This document shows, piece after piece, positions 1 to 5,626 of a DNA stretch of 5,626 nucleotides. The first letter of the stretch is position 1. Each line of letters begins with the position of its first letter. The notes beneath the pieces were generated by a model. It saw nothing but the letters and a program-made list of their open reading frames with translations. It was not told the DNA's origin and did not search any database. The DNA comes from a virus (taxonomy: Duplodnaviria > Heunggongvirae > Uroviricota > Caudoviricetes). Location of the stretch: positions 1-5,626 of IMG/VR virus record IMGVR_UViG_2645727555_000026. One strand, written 5' to 3'. The translations under genes and the position numbers were made by a program.

Positions 1-310
1 CTGGCTGACCACGTACAATATTGATTTCATCAAACTGCTCGTCATCAATGAGCACTCCCGCATGCGTCAGCGCATCCAGCGGTGCTTTCAGAATATTGTC
101 CAGGTCACGACGACGCTTATCCGGTGGCTCTGCAATAATTTTTATTGCCAGCCGTCCGGACAGGCTTAATTTCAGTCGCTGCTGGCGAACAATAAGCGCC
201 ACTGCCCGGCGATAACGCTCCCCGGCTTTTGATACAAAATATGTGCTGCCACGGCGTCGCCAGTAAGTGTTCACCGTCGGCGGGTAAGGTAAAACCAAAT
301 CTATGAGCAT
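1..310 (-). CDS. rusA: Crossover junction endodeoxyribonuclease RusA-like Holliday junction resolvase; partial, C-terminus beyond the left window edge
   Basis: Hand translation of the minus strand from ATG at 310..308 gives MLIDLVLPYPPTVNTYWRRRGSTYFVSKAGERYRRAVALIVRQQRLKLSLSGRLAIKIIAEPPDKRRRDLDNILKAPLDALTHAGVLIDDEQFDEINIVRGQP, open to position 1. It shows the RusA hallmarks as I recall them (PP.N.Y near the N-terminus, the acidic DKRRRDLDN block, DALT.AGV..DD). It is not in the ORF track because it has no in-window stop. It begins 12 nt downstream of the DUF968 stop. Confidence 0.85.
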   Translation of the reverse strand, partial: MLIDLVLPYPPTVNTYWRRRGSTYFVSKAGERYRRAVALIVRQQRLKLSLSGRLAIKIIAEPPDKRRRDLDNILKAPLDALTHAGVLIDDEQFDEINIVRGQP

Positions 311-322
311 CAGTCACCTCTT

Positions 323-1372
323 TTACCCGAGCACGCCGGTTGCAAAGGCGTGATCAAGAAAACGAAAAATTAACTCAATCTGAGAGCCGTACTTTTTCTC
401 AAACTCCAGCGGGTCTGCATGAAGTTCGTTGTGGTGCTCCCGGCACAACGGTAACGTGAAAATATCGTGGGCCTTTGTCCCCATTCCCCCCTGACCATGA
501 CCAATCAGGTGATGCGGATCGTCAGCAGGCTTACCACAACACGCACACGGCTGTGTCTTTACCCAGCGCGTGTATTTCTCGTTAACCCAGCGGCGACGTT
601 TAGGTCGTTTCATGAAAGATTCCGGAGACTCAGGATCAACGGCAATGCTGACCACCGTCTTTTCCTGTGGTGGGTTCTGTTGCTGGTGGGCGTGAGGCAG
701 CGGCGCAAGATTTTTTGTGCGCTGCTTCAGTATGCTGGTGGCGGTCTGCTCTCCCGGTACGATGTCGCTTTCACGGTACACTGAGCGGATTTTTTCCGCA
801 CGCAACCCCAGCGAACGACGTAATACCGCTTCCGGTAGCGCGTCCGCCACCTGATTGCGGACCGCCCACCAGGATAATTCAGCCAGAGATAATTCACGCT
901 CCTGCGTACCGCATATTGCGTGACCGATGACGTCAATCATCCATGCTGACAGGTTTTGATGAGCAAGTTGCTCGAGTGATTCGGATGTCTGGTCACGCAG
1001 CTGGTTGTCGCAGTGCCAGCACAACACCATTGCGCCGGTACCATAACGGTGAATAACGGTTTCACTGTGATGATAATCGCCGTGTGGCCACTGGCAGGAT
1101 TTAACATGGCGCAGTAACCAGTCAGACAATGCGCCAGCGCCACCAGCAGCACGAATCACCCGTGCGTTACTGAAAAACGGCAGCAATGTTTTGTCTTCCA
1201 CTAGCGGCTGGCGAACGGCAGGGACGATGCCGGACGGCAGATTACGCATGCTTTTCGGTTCCGGCTCCACCAGTACCCGGGTATTGTGGAATACCGGCAT
1301 GGATTCACGGCCCGGCTTAACGATCACCAGCCCGAGTTCCGGTACCAGAACAGGTCGAAGTAATACCCGCAC
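323..1372 (-). CDS. Phage nin-region protein, DUF968-like (YdfU-like), with a C-terminal HNH-like Cys/His metal-binding motif
   Basis: 349-aa ORF from the track, GTG start at 1372 preceded by a GGAGGT Shine-Dalgarno. The C-terminal segment CACCGKPADDPHHLIGHG...LPLCREHHNELH is a Cys/His cluster of the HNH-endonuclease-like type. The start overlaps the stop of the upstream ORF (TAA-C-GTG) and the gene is immediately followed by rusA. Family assignment is from memory, not a search. Confidence 0.75.
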   Translation of the reverse strand: MRVLLRPVLVPELGLVIVKPGRESMPVFHNTRVLVEPEPKSMRNLPSGIVPAVRQPLVEDKTLLPFFSNARVIRAAGGAGALSDWLLRHVKSCQWPHGDYHHSETVIHRYGTGAMVLCWHCDNQLRDQTSESLEQLAHQNLSAWMIDVIGHAICGTQERELSLAELSWWAVRNQVADALPEAVLRRSLGLRAEKIRSVYRESDIVPGEQTATSILKQRTKNLAPLPHAHQQQNPPQEKTVVSIAVDPESPESFMKRPKRRRWVNEKYTRWVKTQPCACCGKPADDPHHLIGHGQGGMGTKAHDIFTLPLCREHHNELHADPLEFEKKYGSQIELIFRFLDHAFATGVLG

Positions 1373-1373
1373 G

Positions 1374-1646
1374 TTACCTCCAGATGCGTTGCTGGAATGT
1401 GCGGGACGGACGCGGCGGGCGTTCGGAATAAAGGAGCCTGACGTAGATTATCCAGTGACGGTAGTCGAGGCTAAGGGCTTTCTTAAACTCATACCCACGT
1501 CTGCGGTAGTTATGAATCAGCCATTCGGCCTGTTCTTCAGTGCAGGGATCGTGCTGATACCAGTCATATTTGAATGTGTGAGAACACCGCCCTTGCCTGC
1601 TGGCAGGGGCGATATCAGAATTGTGATGTTTGGTATTGTGCGCCAT
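1374..1646 (-). CDS. Hypothetical small phage protein, about 90 aa; an alternative TTG start at 1700 would give 108 aa
   Basis: ORF from the track (1374..1700) with an internal ATG at 1646 (MAHNTKHHNSD...). Its TAA stop at 1376..1374 abuts the DUF968 GTG start, suggesting translational coupling. No recognisable family motif and no strong SD for either start, so start and function are uncertain. Confidence 0.5.
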   Translation of the reverse strand: MAHNTKHHNSDIAPASRQGRCSHTFKYDWYQHDPCTEEQAEWLIHNYRRRGYEFKKALSLDYRHWIIYVRLLYSERPPRPSRTFQQRIWR

Positions 1647-1716
1647 CGGTTTTCTCTGCTGGCGCAGCAGGTGCCAGTTGTTCAAGCTGGCGTGCGGCAA
1701 TATTGTCTCTGATTTC

Positions 1717-1746
1717 TGTTGTCGTCAACAGGCAACGTGCTATCAT
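1717..1746 (+). promoter_or_regulatory. Putative sigma70 promoter of parDE overlapping a short palindrome (possible ParD operator), inside a divergent promoter region
   Basis: TTGTCG (1719-1724), 16-nt spacer, TATCAT (1741-1746), about 35 nt upstream of the parD ATG. TGTTG (1717-1721) and CAACA (1726-1730) form an inverted repeat around the -35. On the opposite strand TTGACG (complement of 1721-1726) could serve as a -35 for the leftward operon. Pattern-based only. Confidence 0.35.
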
Positions 1747-1781
1747 CGAATGGTGTTCTATCCTACTCCGTGAGGTTTACC

Positions 1782-2039
1782 ATGCGTACAACCCAACAAT
1801 TCAGCATTACATTAACTAACGAAATGGCTGACATGGTGCGCGCCCGTGTGGCTTCCGGTGCCTATGCTTCAGAAAGCGAGGTCATTCGTGAAGGGCTTCG
1901 CGCACTGAATGAGCGCGATAAAGCAATCGAAGCGTGGTTAACGCATTCAGCCGCCCCCTCTCTTGATTCTATCCGCGAAAACCCAAACAACGGACGCTCC
2001 ATTTCACAGGTTCGCGCCGCGATTCGATCCGGGAAGTAA
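1782..2039 (+). CDS. parD: Type II antitoxin, ParD-like (ribbon-helix-helix, COG3609 type)
   Basis: 85 aa from ATG 1782 with GAGG SD 6 nt upstream (the track's upstream TTG start at 1719 is less likely). Sequence MRTTQQFSITLTNEMADMVRARVASGAYASESEVIREGLRALNERDKAIEAWL matches the ParD-type motif (..SASEVIR..LR.L.ER..). The stop lies 5 nt before the toxin start, the usual antitoxin-first TA layout. Confidence 0.85.
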   Translation: MRTTQQFSITLTNEMADMVRARVASGAYASESEVIREGLRALNERDKAIEAWLTHSAAPSLDSIRENPNNGRSISQVRAAIRSGK

Positions 2040-2044
2040 TCTGC

Positions 2045-2344
2045 ATGACATATGAAGTCATCATTACTCCTGAGGCCGAAGAACAAATAATCAACCTGCA
2101 CAGATATATAACGGAGAAAGCAGGGAACGTCATTGCTGACAATTTTGCCAATGCGCTTCTTGATTATCTTGATGGGTTTTCTACATTCCCGCATCGGGGC
2201 AATAAACGCGATGATATTCGCCAGGGGATGCGGGTAACTCATTTCCGCCACAGAACGATTATTGCTTTTGCCGTTGATGGCAGAAAAGTCTTTATTGTCG
2301 GTATCTATCATGGTGGGCAAAGTTATGAAACCGATTTCTTATAA
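2045..2344 (+). CDS. parE: Type II toxin, ParE/RelE superfamily (ParE-like)
   Basis: 99 aa, MTYEVIITPEAEEQIINLHRYI...FPHRGNKRDDIRQGMRVTHFRHRTIIAFAVDGRKVFIVGIYHGGQSY. Size and conserved pattern (Y.V.IT..AE.D, P..G..R.D.R.G.R, HR..I.F.V.G..V.I..I.HG.Q) are typical of ParE toxins. Immediately follows the ParD-like gene. Confidence 0.88.
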   Translation: MTYEVIITPEAEEQIINLHRYITEKAGNVIADNFANALLDYLDGFSTFPHRGNKRDDIRQGMRVTHFRHRTIIAFAVDGRKVFIVGIYHGGQSYETDFL

Positions 2345-2425
2345 ACTTTTACCCACATCATTCCGGTGTTAGAATTAACCGTCCGCCCCCCTCTCTTACT
2401 GGCGGATTCGTAGGCTATATAAATC

Positions 2426-2462
2426 AAAGATCCCGGCTCATGTTTGTGTCGGGATCTTTTTT
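2426..2462. terminator. Rho-independent terminator hairpin, probably bidirectional, shared by the convergent parDE unit and the minus-strand three-gene operon
   Basis: Perfect 10-bp inverted repeat AAAGATCCCG (2426-2435) / CGGGATCTTT (2450-2459) around a 14-nt loop, followed by a T-run on the plus strand (TTTTTT, 2457-2462) and preceded by an A/T-rich tract that gives a U-rich tail on the minus strand. It sits 80 bp after the parE stop and about 10 bp after the small-peptide stop. Confidence 0.7.
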
Positions 2463-2469
2463 CGGCGAT

Positions 2470-2553
2470 TTATCCCCAGCGGCAAATCGAATACACCACC
2501 AGCGCCACCGCCATCGCAATTCCTACCGTTGTGAATGCTTCAGGCCTGGTCAT
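2470..2553 (-). CDS. Unannotated 27-aa hydrophobic (single-pass membrane-type) peptide, third gene of the coupled operon
   Basis: Hand translation of the minus strand from ATG 2553..2551: [30 protein letters not shown] at 2472..2470. The ATG overlaps the TGA stop of the upstream 114-aa ORF (ATGA), with GGAGG (complement of 2563-2567) 9 nt upstream. A hydrophobic core is followed by a basic/aromatic RW end, and the terminator hairpin follows directly. Below the ORF-track size cutoff. Confidence 0.5.
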
Positions 2554-2894
2554 CGTAAAACATCCTCCACGCTTGTCAGTCCGTTTCGCTCCAGGTAGTC
2601 CATCGCCTTATCCGGCAGTTTGCAGTCCGGCTTCGCTTTCCTCAGTTGCCAGGCTAACTGCTTTACCTGCATAGTTAACTCGTCGACCAGACGCTGATAC
2701 CCCACTGGTTTGTATTCATGCAATTTACCGGCTGGCTCTGCTGCCAGCGATGCCAGTGCGATTTCCAGAACAGCAATATCCATCTTATATGTGCGGATGA
2801 TGTCATGGTCGATTGTGCCCGGTATACACAGTCTCTGTGCTTCAATAGTCTCCTCTGCGTGAGCTATTAACTGCTCTCTGGTAATAGTGGTCAT
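2550..2894 (-). CDS. Hypothetical 114-aa protein (predicted mostly alpha-helical), middle gene of the coupled operon
   Basis: ORF from the track. ATG at 2894..2892 overlaps the TGA stop of the upstream 171-aa gene (ATGA) and an AAGGA SD lies about 9 nt upstream. No family motif recognised. Confidence 0.7.
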
Positions 2895-3406
2895 GCCGCG
2901 TTTCCTTCTTTCTTATTAACAATTACACCGTCATATATTTCATTAAGGTGCCCTCTCAACTCCATGCGCCTTAATGCAGACAACATGTAATCGCATTCAA
3001 CCTGCTTATTTCCAGTAAATGGCTTATCGTCAGGATTACCCCAACAGCAATTACCCTTGGGCCACCCATGTACTTTCCGTACTCTTCCGTTAACAACGTG
3101 AAGTAATCCCCAGCCAGGTGGTAAATCCTCAATTGAAATAATTCCCGGCTCACTAATAAAGAATCGCCAGTCGCCCATTCCAAGAGACGGATTTTTACGA
3201 AAACGCTTTTTTCTATCTGCCAACAAGTCAGCACGAGAACATTTCGCCTCTATCAGGCATGATGCTGAATTTCTGAATCCCATAGCATCTGGCTGTTCTC
3301 CGGTACTGGTTACAGCTATAAAGCGGTCATGAAAACAAACCTTGAACCCGTTGCGCTTAAGGAACTTGTACGCAATCTGACAGAGTTCGCGGTGTGTTAA
3401 CGCCAT
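2891..3406 (-). CDS. Putative PD-(D/E)XK-fold nuclease-like protein (171 aa), first gene of the coupled operon
   Basis: The track ORF 2891..3436 starts at a TTG; ATG at 3406 with a strong AGGAG SD (CAAAGGAGAGTGAT-ATG) is the more likely start. Sequence: helix with Glu ([17 protein letters not shown]), beta-strand [12 protein letters not shown] (D40, codon 3289..3287), then 13 residues on, CLIEAKCS (E53-x-K55, codons 3250..3242), i.e. a PD...(D/E)XK arrangement. The C-terminal half has no recognised motif. Fold assignment is a motif-level inference. Confidence 0.7.
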
Positions 3407-3551
3407 ATCACTCTCCTTTGATGCGAATGCCAGCAAGCCAGTTTCTTATGCCGATATATTCAGCGTTCCTGAAACCGCTTTTTACATACGCTGGGCTAAA
3501 AATGAAGTTATCGCCAGAGATCGCGAAGACTGGAAGCGCATCTCCGCATCA

Positions 3552-5144
3552 ATGCGCAAACAACCTGATGCGCTTCGCTACAGCCGCCAGACTATTTTTG
3601 GCCTTGTCCGTGAACGCCCGATCGACATTCACAAAGATCCCGTGGCACTGAACAAATACATCACTGAATACCTGACTACAAAGGGCGTGTTTGAAGATGA
3701 CGAAGGAACAAATCAGGGCACAGCTAATACTCTCTCGTCGCCAGTACCAGAAACTGACGCAGTGGAAACGGCAATTCAGGACAACGAAAAAACCGAATGC
3801 AAAGTGGAAGTCGAATCATCTGTAGAGCGTGAGGGGCCGTTCTACTTCCTCTTCAGCGACAAGGATGGCGAAAAATACGGTCGTGCAAACAAACTTTCTG
3901 GTCTGAATAAGGCGCTGGCTGCAGGGGCTACTGAAATCACGAAAGAAGAATATTTTGCCCGCAAAAACGGTACATACTCAGGTTCACAACAAAATACTGG
4001 TGCATCTGACACGATCGCACAACCGGAGCCGGTAAAAGTTACCGCTGACGAAGTAAACAAAATTATGCAGGCAGCCAATATCAGCCAGCCTGACGCCGAT
4101 AAGTTGCTTGCTGTATCACGTGGTGAATTTGTTGCAGGGATTAGCGACCCGAATGATCCGAAATGGGTGAAGGAGATTGAAACCCGCGATTCAGTGAATC
4201 AGAACCAGCAAGAAACGGAACAGAACGACCAGAAAGCGGAACAAAACAGCCCAAATGCGTTACAAAACGAGCCAGAAACGAAACAATCCGAACCAGTAGT
4301 GCAACAGGAACCGGAAAAAGTCTGCACCGCCTGCGGTCAGAGCGGTGGCGGCAACTGCCCCGATTGTGGCGCTGTCATGGGCAACGCAACATACCAGGAA
4401 ACATTCGATGAAGAGAATCAGGTTGAAGCTCAGGAGAATGATCCGGAGGAAATGGAAGGCGCTGAACATCCACACAAGGAGAACACTGGCGGCAATCAGC
4501 ATCACGCCAGCGATAGTGAAACTGGCGAGGCGGCAGATCCCTTAATTAAGGTGAATGGTCATCACAATCTCACATCCACCAGCAGAGCGGGGATTCATCT
4601 GATGATCGACATTGAAACCATGGGAAAAAATCCCAATGCCGCGATTATCTCAATAGGCGCAATATTTTTCGATCCACAAACCGGAGATATGGGACCGGAA
4701 TTTAGCAAGACCATCGATCTGGATACTGCTGGCGGAGTTATTGATCGTGACGTCATTAAATGGTGGCTGAAGCAATCACGTGAAGCGCAGTCTGCCATTC
4801 TGACCGATGAAATCCCGTTAGATGATGCACTACTGCAATTGCGGGAATTTATCGCCGAAAACTCCGGTGAATTTTTTGTTCAGGTCTGGGGAAATGGAGC
4901 CAACTTCGACAACGTGATTTTACGCCGTTCATACGAACGGCAGGGGATCCCCTGCCCCTGGCACTACCACAACGATCGCGATGTACGCACAATCGTTGAG
5001 CTAGGGAAAGCCATAGACTTCGATGCCAGAACAGCTATCCCATTCGAAGGTGAGCGCCACAATGCACTTGATGACGCCCGTTACCAGGCAAAATACGTTT
5101 CAGCTATCTGGCAAAAACTGATCCCGAGTCAGGCTGATTTTTAA
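3552..5144 (+). CDS. Multidomain phage protein (530 aa): N-terminal region of unknown function, acidic Gln/Glu-rich low-complexity linker, C-x2-C-x8-C-x2-C zinc ribbon, C-terminal DEDDh (DnaQ-like) 3'-5' exonuclease domain
   Basis: Long ORF from the track; 3552 is the first in-frame ATG after an upstream stop, with no obvious SD. Zinc ribbon CTACGQSGGGNCPDCG at about 4321-4370. Exonuclease motifs: Exo I MIDIETMG (about 4602-4625), Exo II VWGNGANFDNVIL, Exo III HNALDDARYQA near the C-terminus. Low-complexity segment NQNQQETEQNDQKAEQNSPNALQNEPETKQSEPVVQQEPEK at about 4195-4320. Confidence 0.85.
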   Translation: MRKQPDALRYSRQTIFGLVRERPIDIHKDPVALNKYITEYLTTKGVFEDDEGTNQGTANTLSSPVPETDAVETAIQDNEKTECKVEVESSVEREGPFYFLFSDKDGEKYGRANKLSGLNKALAAGATEITKEEYFARKNGTYSGSQQNTGASDTIAQPEPVKVTADEVNKIMQAANISQPDADKLLAVSRGEFVAGISDPNDPKWVKEIETRDSVNQNQQETEQNDQKAEQNSPNALQNEPETKQSEPVVQQEPEKVCTACGQSGGGNCPDCGAVMGNATYQETFDEENQVEAQENDPEEMEGAEHPHKENTGGNQHHASDSETGEAADPLIKVNGHHNLTSTSRAGIHLMIDIETMGKNPNAAIISIGAIFFDPQTGDMGPEFSKTIDLDTAGGVIDRDVIKWWLKQSREAQSAILTDEIPLDDALLQLREFIAENSGEFFVQVWGNGANFDNVILRRSYERQGIPCPWHYHNDRDVRTIVELGKAIDFDARTAIPFEGERHNALDDARYQAKYVSAIWQKLIPSQADF

Positions 5145-5213
5145 TGTTCAACCATCGCCGGTTGTGACTGGTATTCTGCAACCGGCCCTCATCTGATGTA
5201 AGAGATAAAAGCG

Positions 5214-5465
5214 ATGAGCGAAGTAATCATGATTGTCTCTCCCGGTAAATGGGTATCTGAAGAACAGCTAATTGCACTGAAAGGAATAAAAAAGGGAACG
5301 CTAAAAAAAGCCAGAGAAAAATCGTTTATGGAAGGAAGGGAATATAAGCATGTCGCCCATGACTGTATGCCATGGGATAACAGCCCATGCTTTTACAACC
5401 TGGAAGAAATAGATCGCTGGATTGAACGCCAGGCATCAGCAAGACCAAGGCGTCATCTTACTTGA
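5214..5465 (+). CDS. xis: Excisionase-like (Xis-type) small DNA-binding protein
   Basis: 83-aa ORF immediately upstream of, and co-oriented with, the integrase gene. Contains a GREY motif (MEGREYKHV) reminiscent of the lambda Xis DGREYLF segment. Assignment rests mainly on size and position; an alternative start at ATG 5229 is possible. Confidence 0.6.
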   Translation: MSEVIMIVSPGKWVSEEQLIALKGIKKGTLKKAREKSFMEGREYKHVAHDCMPWDNSPCFYNLEEIDRWIERQASARPRRHLT

Positions 5466-5499
5466 GTAAAAACAATACTAACCAATGAGAGAAGCTGAA

Positions 5500-5626
5500 A
5501 TGAAATATCCGACAGGCGTGGAAAACCATGGTGGGAAATTACGTATCTGGTTTGTTTATAAAGGTGTAAGAGTCCGGGAAAATCTTGGGGTTCCTGACAC
5601 AGCAAAAAACAGGCGCATTGCAGGTG
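5500..5626 (+). CDS. int: Tyrosine integrase (lambda Int family), N-terminal arm-binding region only; continues past the right window edge
   Basis: ATG at 5500 with a GAGAGAAG SD-like stretch upstream. Hand translation MKYPTGVENHGGKLRIWFVYKGVRVRENLGVPDTAKNRRIAG resembles the N-terminus of enterobacterial prophage integrases (PTGVE..G..RIWF.YKG.R.RE.L). Open to the window end. Confidence 0.75.
   Translation, partial: MKYPTGVENHGGKLRIWFVYKGVRVRENLGVPDTAKNRRIAG

Follow-up and report, generated by a model that had tools for sequence, protein, structure and literature searches.

Lambdoid prophages related to the K-12 prophage Qin share a gene order that runs int-xis-exo-dicB-immunity-replication-nin-Q, in which the nin region is composed of ead, ParDE or hok/rem, a gene for a 90-aa protein, DUF968 and rusA. 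This order is found in intact rspB-site prophages of STEC strains and other Escherichia coli, namely 2013C-3342 (L001), 12E115 (L008) and 14EC001 (L006), as well as in the phages mEp460 and PPompW (L007). In the latter two it reads int-xis-exo-dicB-immunity-replication-(hok/rem)-90aa-ydfU-rusA-Q, and in K-12 Qin it has decayed. Qin, at the ydfJ-rspB locus, retains the dicA/dicC immunity region together with dicB/dicF, but its replication genes are lost, rusA is missing, and the C-terminus of the exonuclease as well as xis have been lost at an IS2 insertion, ydfE being the remaining N-terminal fragment. Decay of this kind is documented in enterohemorrhagic strains: the Sp-series lambdoid prophages of EHEC O157 Sakai owe their defects to deletions, frameshifts and IS insertions (Asadulghani et al. 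2009, PMC2669165). Similar losses that bring nin genes close to int have arisen by independent deletions in O145:H28 strains, where the integration site is potC and an IS3-family element sits at the junction, and in strain A10; strains ES3 and LR-46 have a similar juxtaposition, as judged from their listed features only.

The stretch of DNA considered here (the window, 5,626 bp) is one entire contig of a draft assembly (DF970465.1, GCA_001297725.1) and therefore comes without flanks, and both of its ends sit within repeated prophage genes. We propose, with a probability of roughly 0.85, that it represents the early region of a Qin/DicB-type lambdoid prophage from which about 9.5 kb have been removed by a single internal deletion through illegitimate (non-homologous) recombination. 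The element belongs to the lambdoid prophages with an integration site next to rspB, where Qin resides in K-12, and it is a lambda-like E. coli prophage undergoing ordinary decay, a phenomenon that is well known.

The two arms and their intact relatives

The left arm of the window carries nin-type genes on the minus strand. A RusA-family Holliday-junction resolvase gene (rusA, 2-310; PF05866, 59.8 bits; phrog_34) is cut by the contig end such that about 17 codons are missing from its 3' end, the homologous coding sequence of L001 being 360 bp long. It is followed by a gene of the DUF968/YdfU family with an HNH-like C-terminus (323-1372; PF06147, 261 bits; phrog_96, 583 bits), which occupies the same position, beside rusA and Q, in L001, L003, L004, L006, L007, L008 and K-12 Qin (as ydfU). 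Directly upstream of DUF968 lies the conserved hypothetical gene for the 90-aa protein (1374-1646; phrog_1212, 122.6 bits), annotated at the equivalent position in all of these prophages other than Qin. Past rusA, the relatives continue with a DUF1133-family gene (L001, L006 and L008) or with an antitermination/Q gene (L003 and PPompW); in the window, this next gene is beyond the contig end. Two further minus-strand genes encode proteins of 114 aa (2550-2894; phrog_660) and 171 aa (2891-3406; phrog_9263, 411.7 bits). The former has counterparts at the equivalent position in L001, L008 and the Stx2a phage ArgO145. The latter matches only positions 62-230 of its 230-position profile and may be a shortened version of a longer protein; in L001 and L008, PGAP calls a frameshifted pseudogene in the equivalent region. 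Searches against NCBIfam returned no match for the 90-aa, 114-aa and 171-aa proteins, and the 114-aa protein also had none in Pfam. The PADLOC defence models matched neither these three proteins nor DUF968 or ParDE. The arm ends in a remnant of an ead/Ea22-like gene (3408-3488, minus strand), consisting of the last 26 codons and the stop; its translation, YVKSGFRNAEYIGIRNWLAGIRIKGE followed by the stop, is the C-terminus of the 315-aa ead/Ea22-like protein of L001.

Embedded in this arm on the plus strand are genes for a ParD-family antitoxin (1782-2039; PF03693, 32.1 bits against a cut-off of 21; TIGR02606, 53.8 bits against 46.2) and a ParE-family toxin (2045-2344; PF05016, 40.4 bits against 23; phrog_5232, 'toxin'). 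With parE 5 nt downstream of parD, the pair has the makeup of a type II toxin-antitoxin module, in which a small ribbon-helix-helix antitoxin gene is adjacent to and co-oriented with that of a putative ParE/RelE-fold toxin. A weak sigma-70-like site upstream of parD (1719-1746) is a consensus match only. Between the convergent parE and 114-aa genes, an inverted repeat (I8) forms a strong hairpin at 2426-2459 that is followed by a U-run on the plus strand, with a fold energy of -23.2 kcal/mol (z = -5.5) on the plus and -17.4 kcal/mol (z = -4.4) on the minus strand; this is likely a terminator, possibly a bidirectional one. Apart from it, a search of the window for internal repeats gave nothing but short pairs at chance level. 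The first-pass annotation had regarded the genes between rusA-DUF968 and exonuclease-xis-int as accessory cargo inserted between modules. In intact prophages, however, ParDE is found at the same place as here, together with the 114-aa and 171-aa genes, between the ead genes and DUF968, which is their normal nin-region location.

The right arm lies on the plus strand and starts within an exonuclease gene, of which codons 274-824 and the stop remain (3489-5144). It is followed by an excisionase gene (DUF1233, XisR-like; 5214-5465; PF06806, 104.7 bits; phrog_539) and by the first 42 codons of a tyrosine integrase gene, encoding the Arm DNA-binding domain (5500-5625; PF12167, 49.4 bits), before the contig end cuts the gene. 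The exonuclease sequence is 100% identical to L006 20001-21656; the L006 coding sequence measures 2,475 bp (19182-21656), such that the match to the window begins 819 nt inside the gene. What had been taken for a complete exonuclease gene is thus a 530-aa open reading frame (3552-5144) that begins at the first internal ATG and lacks the first 273 codons. The frame is open from 3489, the upstream in-frame stop is at 3378-3380, and there is no start codon before the ATG at 3552. The profile matches agree with this (phrog_2082, positions 295-823 of 823; PF16473, 225 bits, residues 349-520), and the DEDDh-type 3'-5' domain is intact in the truncated gene. An identity as lambda Exo or RecE (PD-(D/E)XK) was considered and rejected, since the catalytic domain is of the Rv2179c-like DEDDh 3'-5' type (PF16473) and the resemblance to RecE is confined to a non-catalytic middle stretch (PRK09709, 269.7 bits against a cut-off of 1269). 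No bet or recT is annotated next to the exonuclease gene in L001, L006 or L008. The gene thus holds the exo position and yet is neither Red- nor RecE-type.

How do these arms relate to intact prophages? Window positions 4-3488 align without gaps and with 99.68% identity to L001, an intact prophage beside rspB, which continues past this arm with ead/Ea22, replication protein P, a DnaT-like replication protein, YdaT, Cro/CI, a LexA-family repressor, dicB, an 820-aa exonuclease, xis and int, and then reaches rspB. Positions 3489-5626 are 100% identical to exo-xis-int of L006, likewise beside rspB. L001 and L006 match the respective other arm more weakly (84-92%), and no single complete genome exceeds 99% identity for both arms, which means that the true parent has to be deduced from mosaics; it is lambdoid mosaicism that leaves no single reference best for both arms. 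L008 does contain both in one prophage, where they are collinear, keep the relative orientation seen in the window and are separated by 9,461 bp (97.1% and 98.8% identity). Taken together, the rspB-site prophages of the three strains are 97-100% identical to the two arms, and the intact relatives differ from the window by about 9.5 kb of additional early-region genes and by a full-length exonuclease gene of 820-824 aa, which in PPompW is frameshifted. The approximately 9.46 kb between the arms comprise ead/Ea22, ydaT and the replication genes, a repressor and a cro-like gene, ydfC, dicB and DUF1482, as well as 273 codons from the start of the exonuclease gene. The integration site of the element itself is presumably rspB, the one indication being that the integrase fragment and xis are 100% identical in DNA sequence to those of L006, which abut rspB.

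This comparison bears on several claims of the first-pass annotation. The genes that it named (rusA, DUF968, ParD, ParE, exonuclease, excisionase and integrase) are confirmed by profile matches, and rusA and DUF968 do lie about 5 kb or less from int and on the opposite strand. The module order, described as non-canonical, is the order of the intact relatives, which share its divergent orientation and merely have about 9.5 kb more in between; only the spacing is abnormal. The int and xis genes lie at one end, co-directional with the adjacent exonuclease gene on the plus strand, as in a leftward early operon, and DUF968/ydfU and rusA lie on the minus strand, the direction leading to Q. The repressor, the cro-like gene and the replication genes expected between the early operons are all absent. 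These absences are a defect that marks the element as a deletion derivative and are no argument against common descent. Measured against its closest intact relatives, the element has lost the genes for repression, induction and replication: no repressor, cro-like gene, ydaT or replication gene of either kind remains, and the 5' part of the exonuclease gene has gone. The suggestion of a rearranged, deleted or cryptic prophage thus holds in part: the element is deleted and cryptic, like Qin, and a single internal deletion of approximately 9.46 kb with its junction at 3488|3489 accounts for it.

Qin belongs to the same phage group and shows the same order on the shared parts: Q-ydfU(DUF968), a toxin-antitoxin module, then dicB-exonuclease-int beside rspB. 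Its ydfU is about 85% identical to the window gene at the DNA level, and both prophages are defective by internal losses. The toxin-antitoxin pair upstream of ydfU is likewise of type II and placed like parDE of the window, but it is relBE. In the window, one blunt deletion took the immunity and replication genes as well as dicB; unlike Qin, the window has kept rusA, xis and the half of the exonuclease gene that Qin lacks, and int follows these. The defective Sakai prophages exemplify the same phenomenon, although their defects were established in a closed genome with excision, replication and packaging tested (PMC2669165), whereas the window is known from contig sequence alone. In O145:H28 and A10, Q-rusA-DUF968 lies within a few kb of a 5'-truncated or intact exonuclease-xis-int module, much as rusA-DUF968 does in the window, and the immunity and replication genes are missing. 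The end-points of these deletions differ from those of the window; they are independent events that yielded different alleles. Derivation from a Stx2a-phage arrangement was also entertained: ArgO145 has a ParDE cassette near int, but its strand relations differ, and window positions 1-3488 match the nin regions of rspB-site prophages contiguously, which is a better account of the left arm.

The junction and its scar

Homology of the left arm ends at 3488, and that of the right arm begins at 3489. The junction is blunt: the left parent reads ...TTTTACATA|TATAAATGG, the right parent ...GCATCCTT|CGCTGGGC and the window ...TTTTACATA|CGCTGGGC, with zero microhomology to the best-matching parents. 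Neither microhomology nor repeats were found at the end-points, and the sole 10-mer shared is more than 100 nt from either breakpoint; for this reason, a homology-driven or site-specific deletion was rejected.

The junction falls into a stretch (3407-3551) that had been described as a 146-bp divergent intergenic region. Instead, it is made of two coding fragments, 81 nt of the ead 3' end and 63 nt of internal exonuclease coding sequence, the latter (3489-3551) being codons 274-294 in frame. Being a junction between ead and exonuclease fragments, the 146-bp region is best understood as a deletion scar. A consensus scan of both strands found no promoter-like site in it, and folding gave no significant secondary structure. 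An Rfam search of the window for hidden RNA genes such as dicF returned only sub-threshold chance matches. Spanning 27-37-mers or a 221-nt probe gave no match across the junction, either among 5,426 complete E. coli genomes or among GTDB species representatives, IMG/VR or JGI metagenomes. A look-up of the identical 530-aa product returned the window's own contig only, and no record in the phage collection covers at least 80% of the window. The junction is documented by one 5.6-kb singleton contig of a draft assembly.

Alternative origins of the junction

Might the junction have arisen without a deletion in the cell? A chimeric contig, assembled from reads of two places in one or two prophages, would have this appearance: the window is a whole short draft contig with both ends in repeated prophage genes, the junction is absent from all other collections searched, and the right arm matches an intact copy at 100%, with no sign of the decay that might follow a deletion. 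Yet the best parents overlap by 0 nt at the join and would have offered a k-mer assembler no repeat to mis-join, the arms are collinear and co-oriented as in one intact prophage, which a deletion predicts and a random chimera would achieve only by luck, and comparable deletions are real in the closed genomes of O145:H28 and A10. We thus consider an assembly artefact unlikely. We give even less credit to an exchange between two resident prophages, or a more complex rearrangement, in which the nin side from one prophage came to adjoin the int side from a different one. The best matches of the left arm (L001, 99.7%) and of the right arm (L006, 100%) do come from different strains, each of which matches the other arm at 84-92% only, and STEC genomes contain as many as 18 sites with a match to the window. 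Nevertheless, such exchange normally needs homology, of which the junction has none, and recombination between two chromosomal prophages would leave the intervening chromosome deleted or inverted. The split best matches are accounted for by mosaicism, and L008 has both arms at 97-99% in one prophage.

The first-pass annotation had raised the further prospect of a non-lambdoid integrative element built from phage modules. Read in this way, the window would be such an element, or a phage satellite, that combines int-xis, an exonuclease, a toxin-antitoxin module and nin genes by design, with 3407-3551 as its divergent control region. The compact layout, the divergent gene sets and the toxin-antitoxin module do lend the window a superficial likeness to a small integrative island. 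However, the supposed control region is two coding fragments lacking a promoter-like match, the exonuclease gene has lost everything up to codon 273, both arms match ordinary lambdoid prophages almost perfectly (99.7-100%), and the compact arrangement is conserved in none of the phage, genome and metagenome collections searched, which does not show it as the norm of any phage group. These findings largely refute such a reading, and we regard it as scarcely credible.

Consequences for the remnant

We envision a scenario whereby one event that involved no IS element eliminated the early region. The deletion would have extended from just inside the 3' end of the ead/Ea22-like gene, on the rightward, nin side, to exonuclease codon 273 on the leftward side. 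Gone with it would be the remainder of ead, several small neighbours, DUF977, DUF1627, both replication genes and ydaT, the repressor and cro-like genes along with the divergent early promoters that they flank, then ydfC, dicB, DUF1482 and the first third of the exonuclease gene. Loss of about 9.5 kb in this way brings the late-side genes rusA, DUF968 and ParDE beside exonuclease-xis-int, and because the surviving flanks retain their original orientation, nin-type genes come to lie back to back with exo'-xis-int.

Such an element would be incapable of repression, of replication and of induction by the normal route. Deprived of their early promoters, rusA, DUF968, exo', xis and int probably show little or no expression. 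ParDE, with a promoter-like match upstream and the terminator hairpin downstream, is likely the sole module that is still autonomous, and it may help to retain the remnant. One could go further and picture the deletion as selected 'domestication' rather than neutral decay: once rid of its repressor, its replication genes and dicB, an inhibitor of cell division, a harmless locked remnant would be kept by ParDE, and the shortened but catalytically intact DEDDh exonuclease, perhaps along with RusA and DUF968, would be expressed from chance promoters to the benefit of the host, for example in DNA repair or phage defence. We deem this very improbable.

For annotation, it follows that 3407-3551 is not to be treated as a regulatory region and that the 530-aa 'exonuclease' is to be labelled a 5'-truncated pseudogene. 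The case also counsels caution, as a short draft contig from a prophage-rich genome may mimic an exotic small element while being a scarred fragment. For the biology of E. coli, the locus adds one further documented case of lambdoid prophage decay, with little significance beyond annotation.

A probable deletion junction within a lambdoid prophage

When the 530-aa ORF was looked up by exact match, the window proved to be the entire contig DF970465.1 (5,626 bp) from the draft assembly GCA_001297725.1, and with no flanking 20-40 kb on record the genomic context must be read from relatives. The contig edges (window 1-3 and 5626) lie within the 3' end of rusA and the 5' end of int, and the assembly broke at both ends because these genes recur across lambdoid prophages; a single genome may have as many as 18 sites that match the window.

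In Megablast the window falls cleanly into two arms that meet at 3488/3489. The left arm (4-3488) gives a gap-free alignment with a prophage of E. coli 2013C-3342 (L001) at 99.68% identity, and the right arm (3489-5626) matches one in strain 14EC001 (L006) at 100%. Both prophages adjoin rspB, the locus of the cryptic prophage Qin in K-12, as does a prophage of strain 12E115 (L008), in which the two arms are found together, collinear and in the same orientation, with a gap of 9,461 bp. Left of the junction, an ead/Ea22-like gene survives as precisely its final 26 codons plus stop (3408-3488, minus strand); to the right, the exonuclease CDS is entered 819 nt in, after codon 273, with its reading frame kept. 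The left parent runs ...TTTTACATA up to the breakpoint and continues with TATAAATGG, and the right parent runs ...GCATCCTT and continues with CGCTGGGC; the two share no sequence at the join, and no IS element or nearby repeat is involved. Judged from the sequence, the junction is a blunt non-homologous deletion, and the perfect match of the right arm to an intact copy suggests that it is recent.

What the first-pass annotation had taken for a 146-bp divergent intergenic region (3407-3551) is a scar of two coding fragments, since it consists of ead 3' codons on the left and in-frame exonuclease codons on the right; neither a sigma-70-like match nor a significant fold was found in it. This precise junction is a singleton: neither 5,426 complete E. 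coli genomes nor the GTDB representatives, IMG/VR or JGI metagenomes contain it, and contig DF970465.1 is the sole record of the 530-aa product.

Might the junction have arisen otherwise? A chimeric contig is unlikely: at the join the two parents have no common k-mer, and the arms are collinear and oriented as a real deletion would leave them. The absence of homology at the junction likewise disfavours an exchange between two prophages. A purpose-built non-lambdoid island is disfavoured as well, given the truncated exonuclease gene, a scar composed of coding fragments and an arrangement that is not conserved in the phage, genome and metagenome collections searched.

Gene order in the window and in intact relatives

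In lambda and its relatives, int-xis-exo run leftward and nin-Q rightward from a central immunity region, a layout seen directly in L001, L006, L008 and phage PPompW (L007). In window orientation, the intact relatives begin with a DUF1133-family gene, rusA, DUF968 and the 90-aa gene, followed by ParD and ParE, the 114-aa and 171-aa genes, ead/Ea22 with several small genes, DUF977 and DUF1627, and then the replication genes, YdaT and a cro-like gene; across divergent promoters come the repressor, ydfC, dicB and DUF1482, and at the far end an 820-824-aa exonuclease, xis, int and rspB. Phages mEp460 and PPompW share this plan, but carry hok/rem where ParDE sits.

The window holds, on the minus strand, rusA (2-310, its 3' end clipped by the contig edge), DUF968/YdfU (323-1372) and a conserved 90-aa gene (1374-1646); on the plus strand, ParD (1782-2039) and ParE (2045-2344); on the minus strand again, the unknown 114-aa (2550-2894) and 171-aa (2891-3406) genes; and, on the plus strand, the exonuclease ORF (3552-5144), a DUF1233 excisionase (5214-5465) and codons 1-42 of the integrase (5500-5625). 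The gene list of the first-pass annotation was right, every named gene being present, and their proximity is real. Its non-canonical order does not hold up: the divergent orientation is retained as in L001, L006, L007 and L008, and the centre alone is missing. Nor has cargo been inserted between modules: ParDE and the two unknown genes stand at the identical nin-region position in intact prophages (L001, L008). The alternative it had offered, a deleted or cryptic prophage like Qin, was correct and can be placed with base-pair precision.

A 27-aa ORF (2470-2553, minus strand), absent from the gene caller's output, begins 3 nt past the stop of the 114-aa gene and may be the third member of the 'three-gene operon' named in the first-pass annotation. 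The 171-aa ORF aligns to the phrog_9263 profile over just positions 62-230 of 230, and PGAP labels the equivalent region a frameshifted pseudogene in complete genomes (L001, 23225-23403; L008, 13794-13972); it may itself be what is left of a longer protein.

The exonuclease gene

The 530-aa ORF is merely the part of the exonuclease that follows the first internal ATG, at 3552, and phrog_20376, a 530-aa family in PHROGs, matches it end to end. Its C-terminal catalytic domain (residues 349-520) is Rv2179c-like DEDDh 3'-5' (PF16473), and although the gene occupies the exo position it is no lambda Exo or RecE-type nuclease; the sole RecE-like part is a non-catalytic middle stretch (residues 154-333), scoring 269.7 bits against PRK09709, where the cut-off is far higher, at 1269. 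The relatives have no annotated bet or recT partner. The gene has been broken repeatedly and in different ways in different prophages: it is frameshifted in PPompW phages (L007, 1676-4143), 5'-truncated beside an IS3-family element in an O145:H28 prophage (L003, 15238-17130) and cut by IS2 in K-12 Qin, where it is ydfE (L009, 20079-20999).

The ParDE cassette and the decay of the prophage

parE and the 114-aa gene converge on a strong hairpin (2426-2459) that is followed by a U-run (region 2415-2475, -23.2 kcal/mol, z = -5.5). It folds on the minus strand too (z = -4.4) and is likely a bidirectional terminator; a simple terminator scan of the window did not list it. The cassette of ParD-ParE, the 114-aa and 171-aa genes and the ead 3' end (1699-3488) is 96.9% identical to part of Stx2a phages such as ArgO145 (L010, 4248-7830). 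In those phages it sits between int and exo as part of the leftward early operon, and its minus-strand genes are co-directional with that operon; in rspB-site prophages it belongs instead to the rightward nin region. One cassette in two operon contexts is a clear mosaic exchange.

The deletion removed the repressor and cro-like genes, ydaT, both replication genes, ydfC, dicB, DUF1482, ead-region genes and the exonuclease N-terminus. Because the early promoters are gone, rusA, DUF968, the truncated exonuclease gene, xis and int probably show little or no expression; the rusA gene of K-12 DLP12 is silent unless an upstream insertion activates it. The element should be incapable of its own replication or induction. 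ParDE, with a weak promoter-like match upstream and the strong hairpin downstream, is probably the one module still working, and may hinder loss of the prophage remnant.

Deletions and IS insertions are well documented in EHEC lambdoid prophages (PMC2669165). At the potC site of O145:H28 strains, the order is Q-rusA-DUF968...IS3...5'-truncated exonuclease-xis-int; strain A10 has Q-ydfU-rem-hokD-...-dicB-exo-xis-int and is missing immunity and replication genes, and strains ES3 and LR-46 are apparently similar, going only by the features listed under their window matches. K-12 Qin, the classic decayed member, keeps the other half of the exonuclease gene, the N-terminal one. This type of deletion event is common, though the exact junction is found only once, and the window shows ordinary prophage decay of a known kind.
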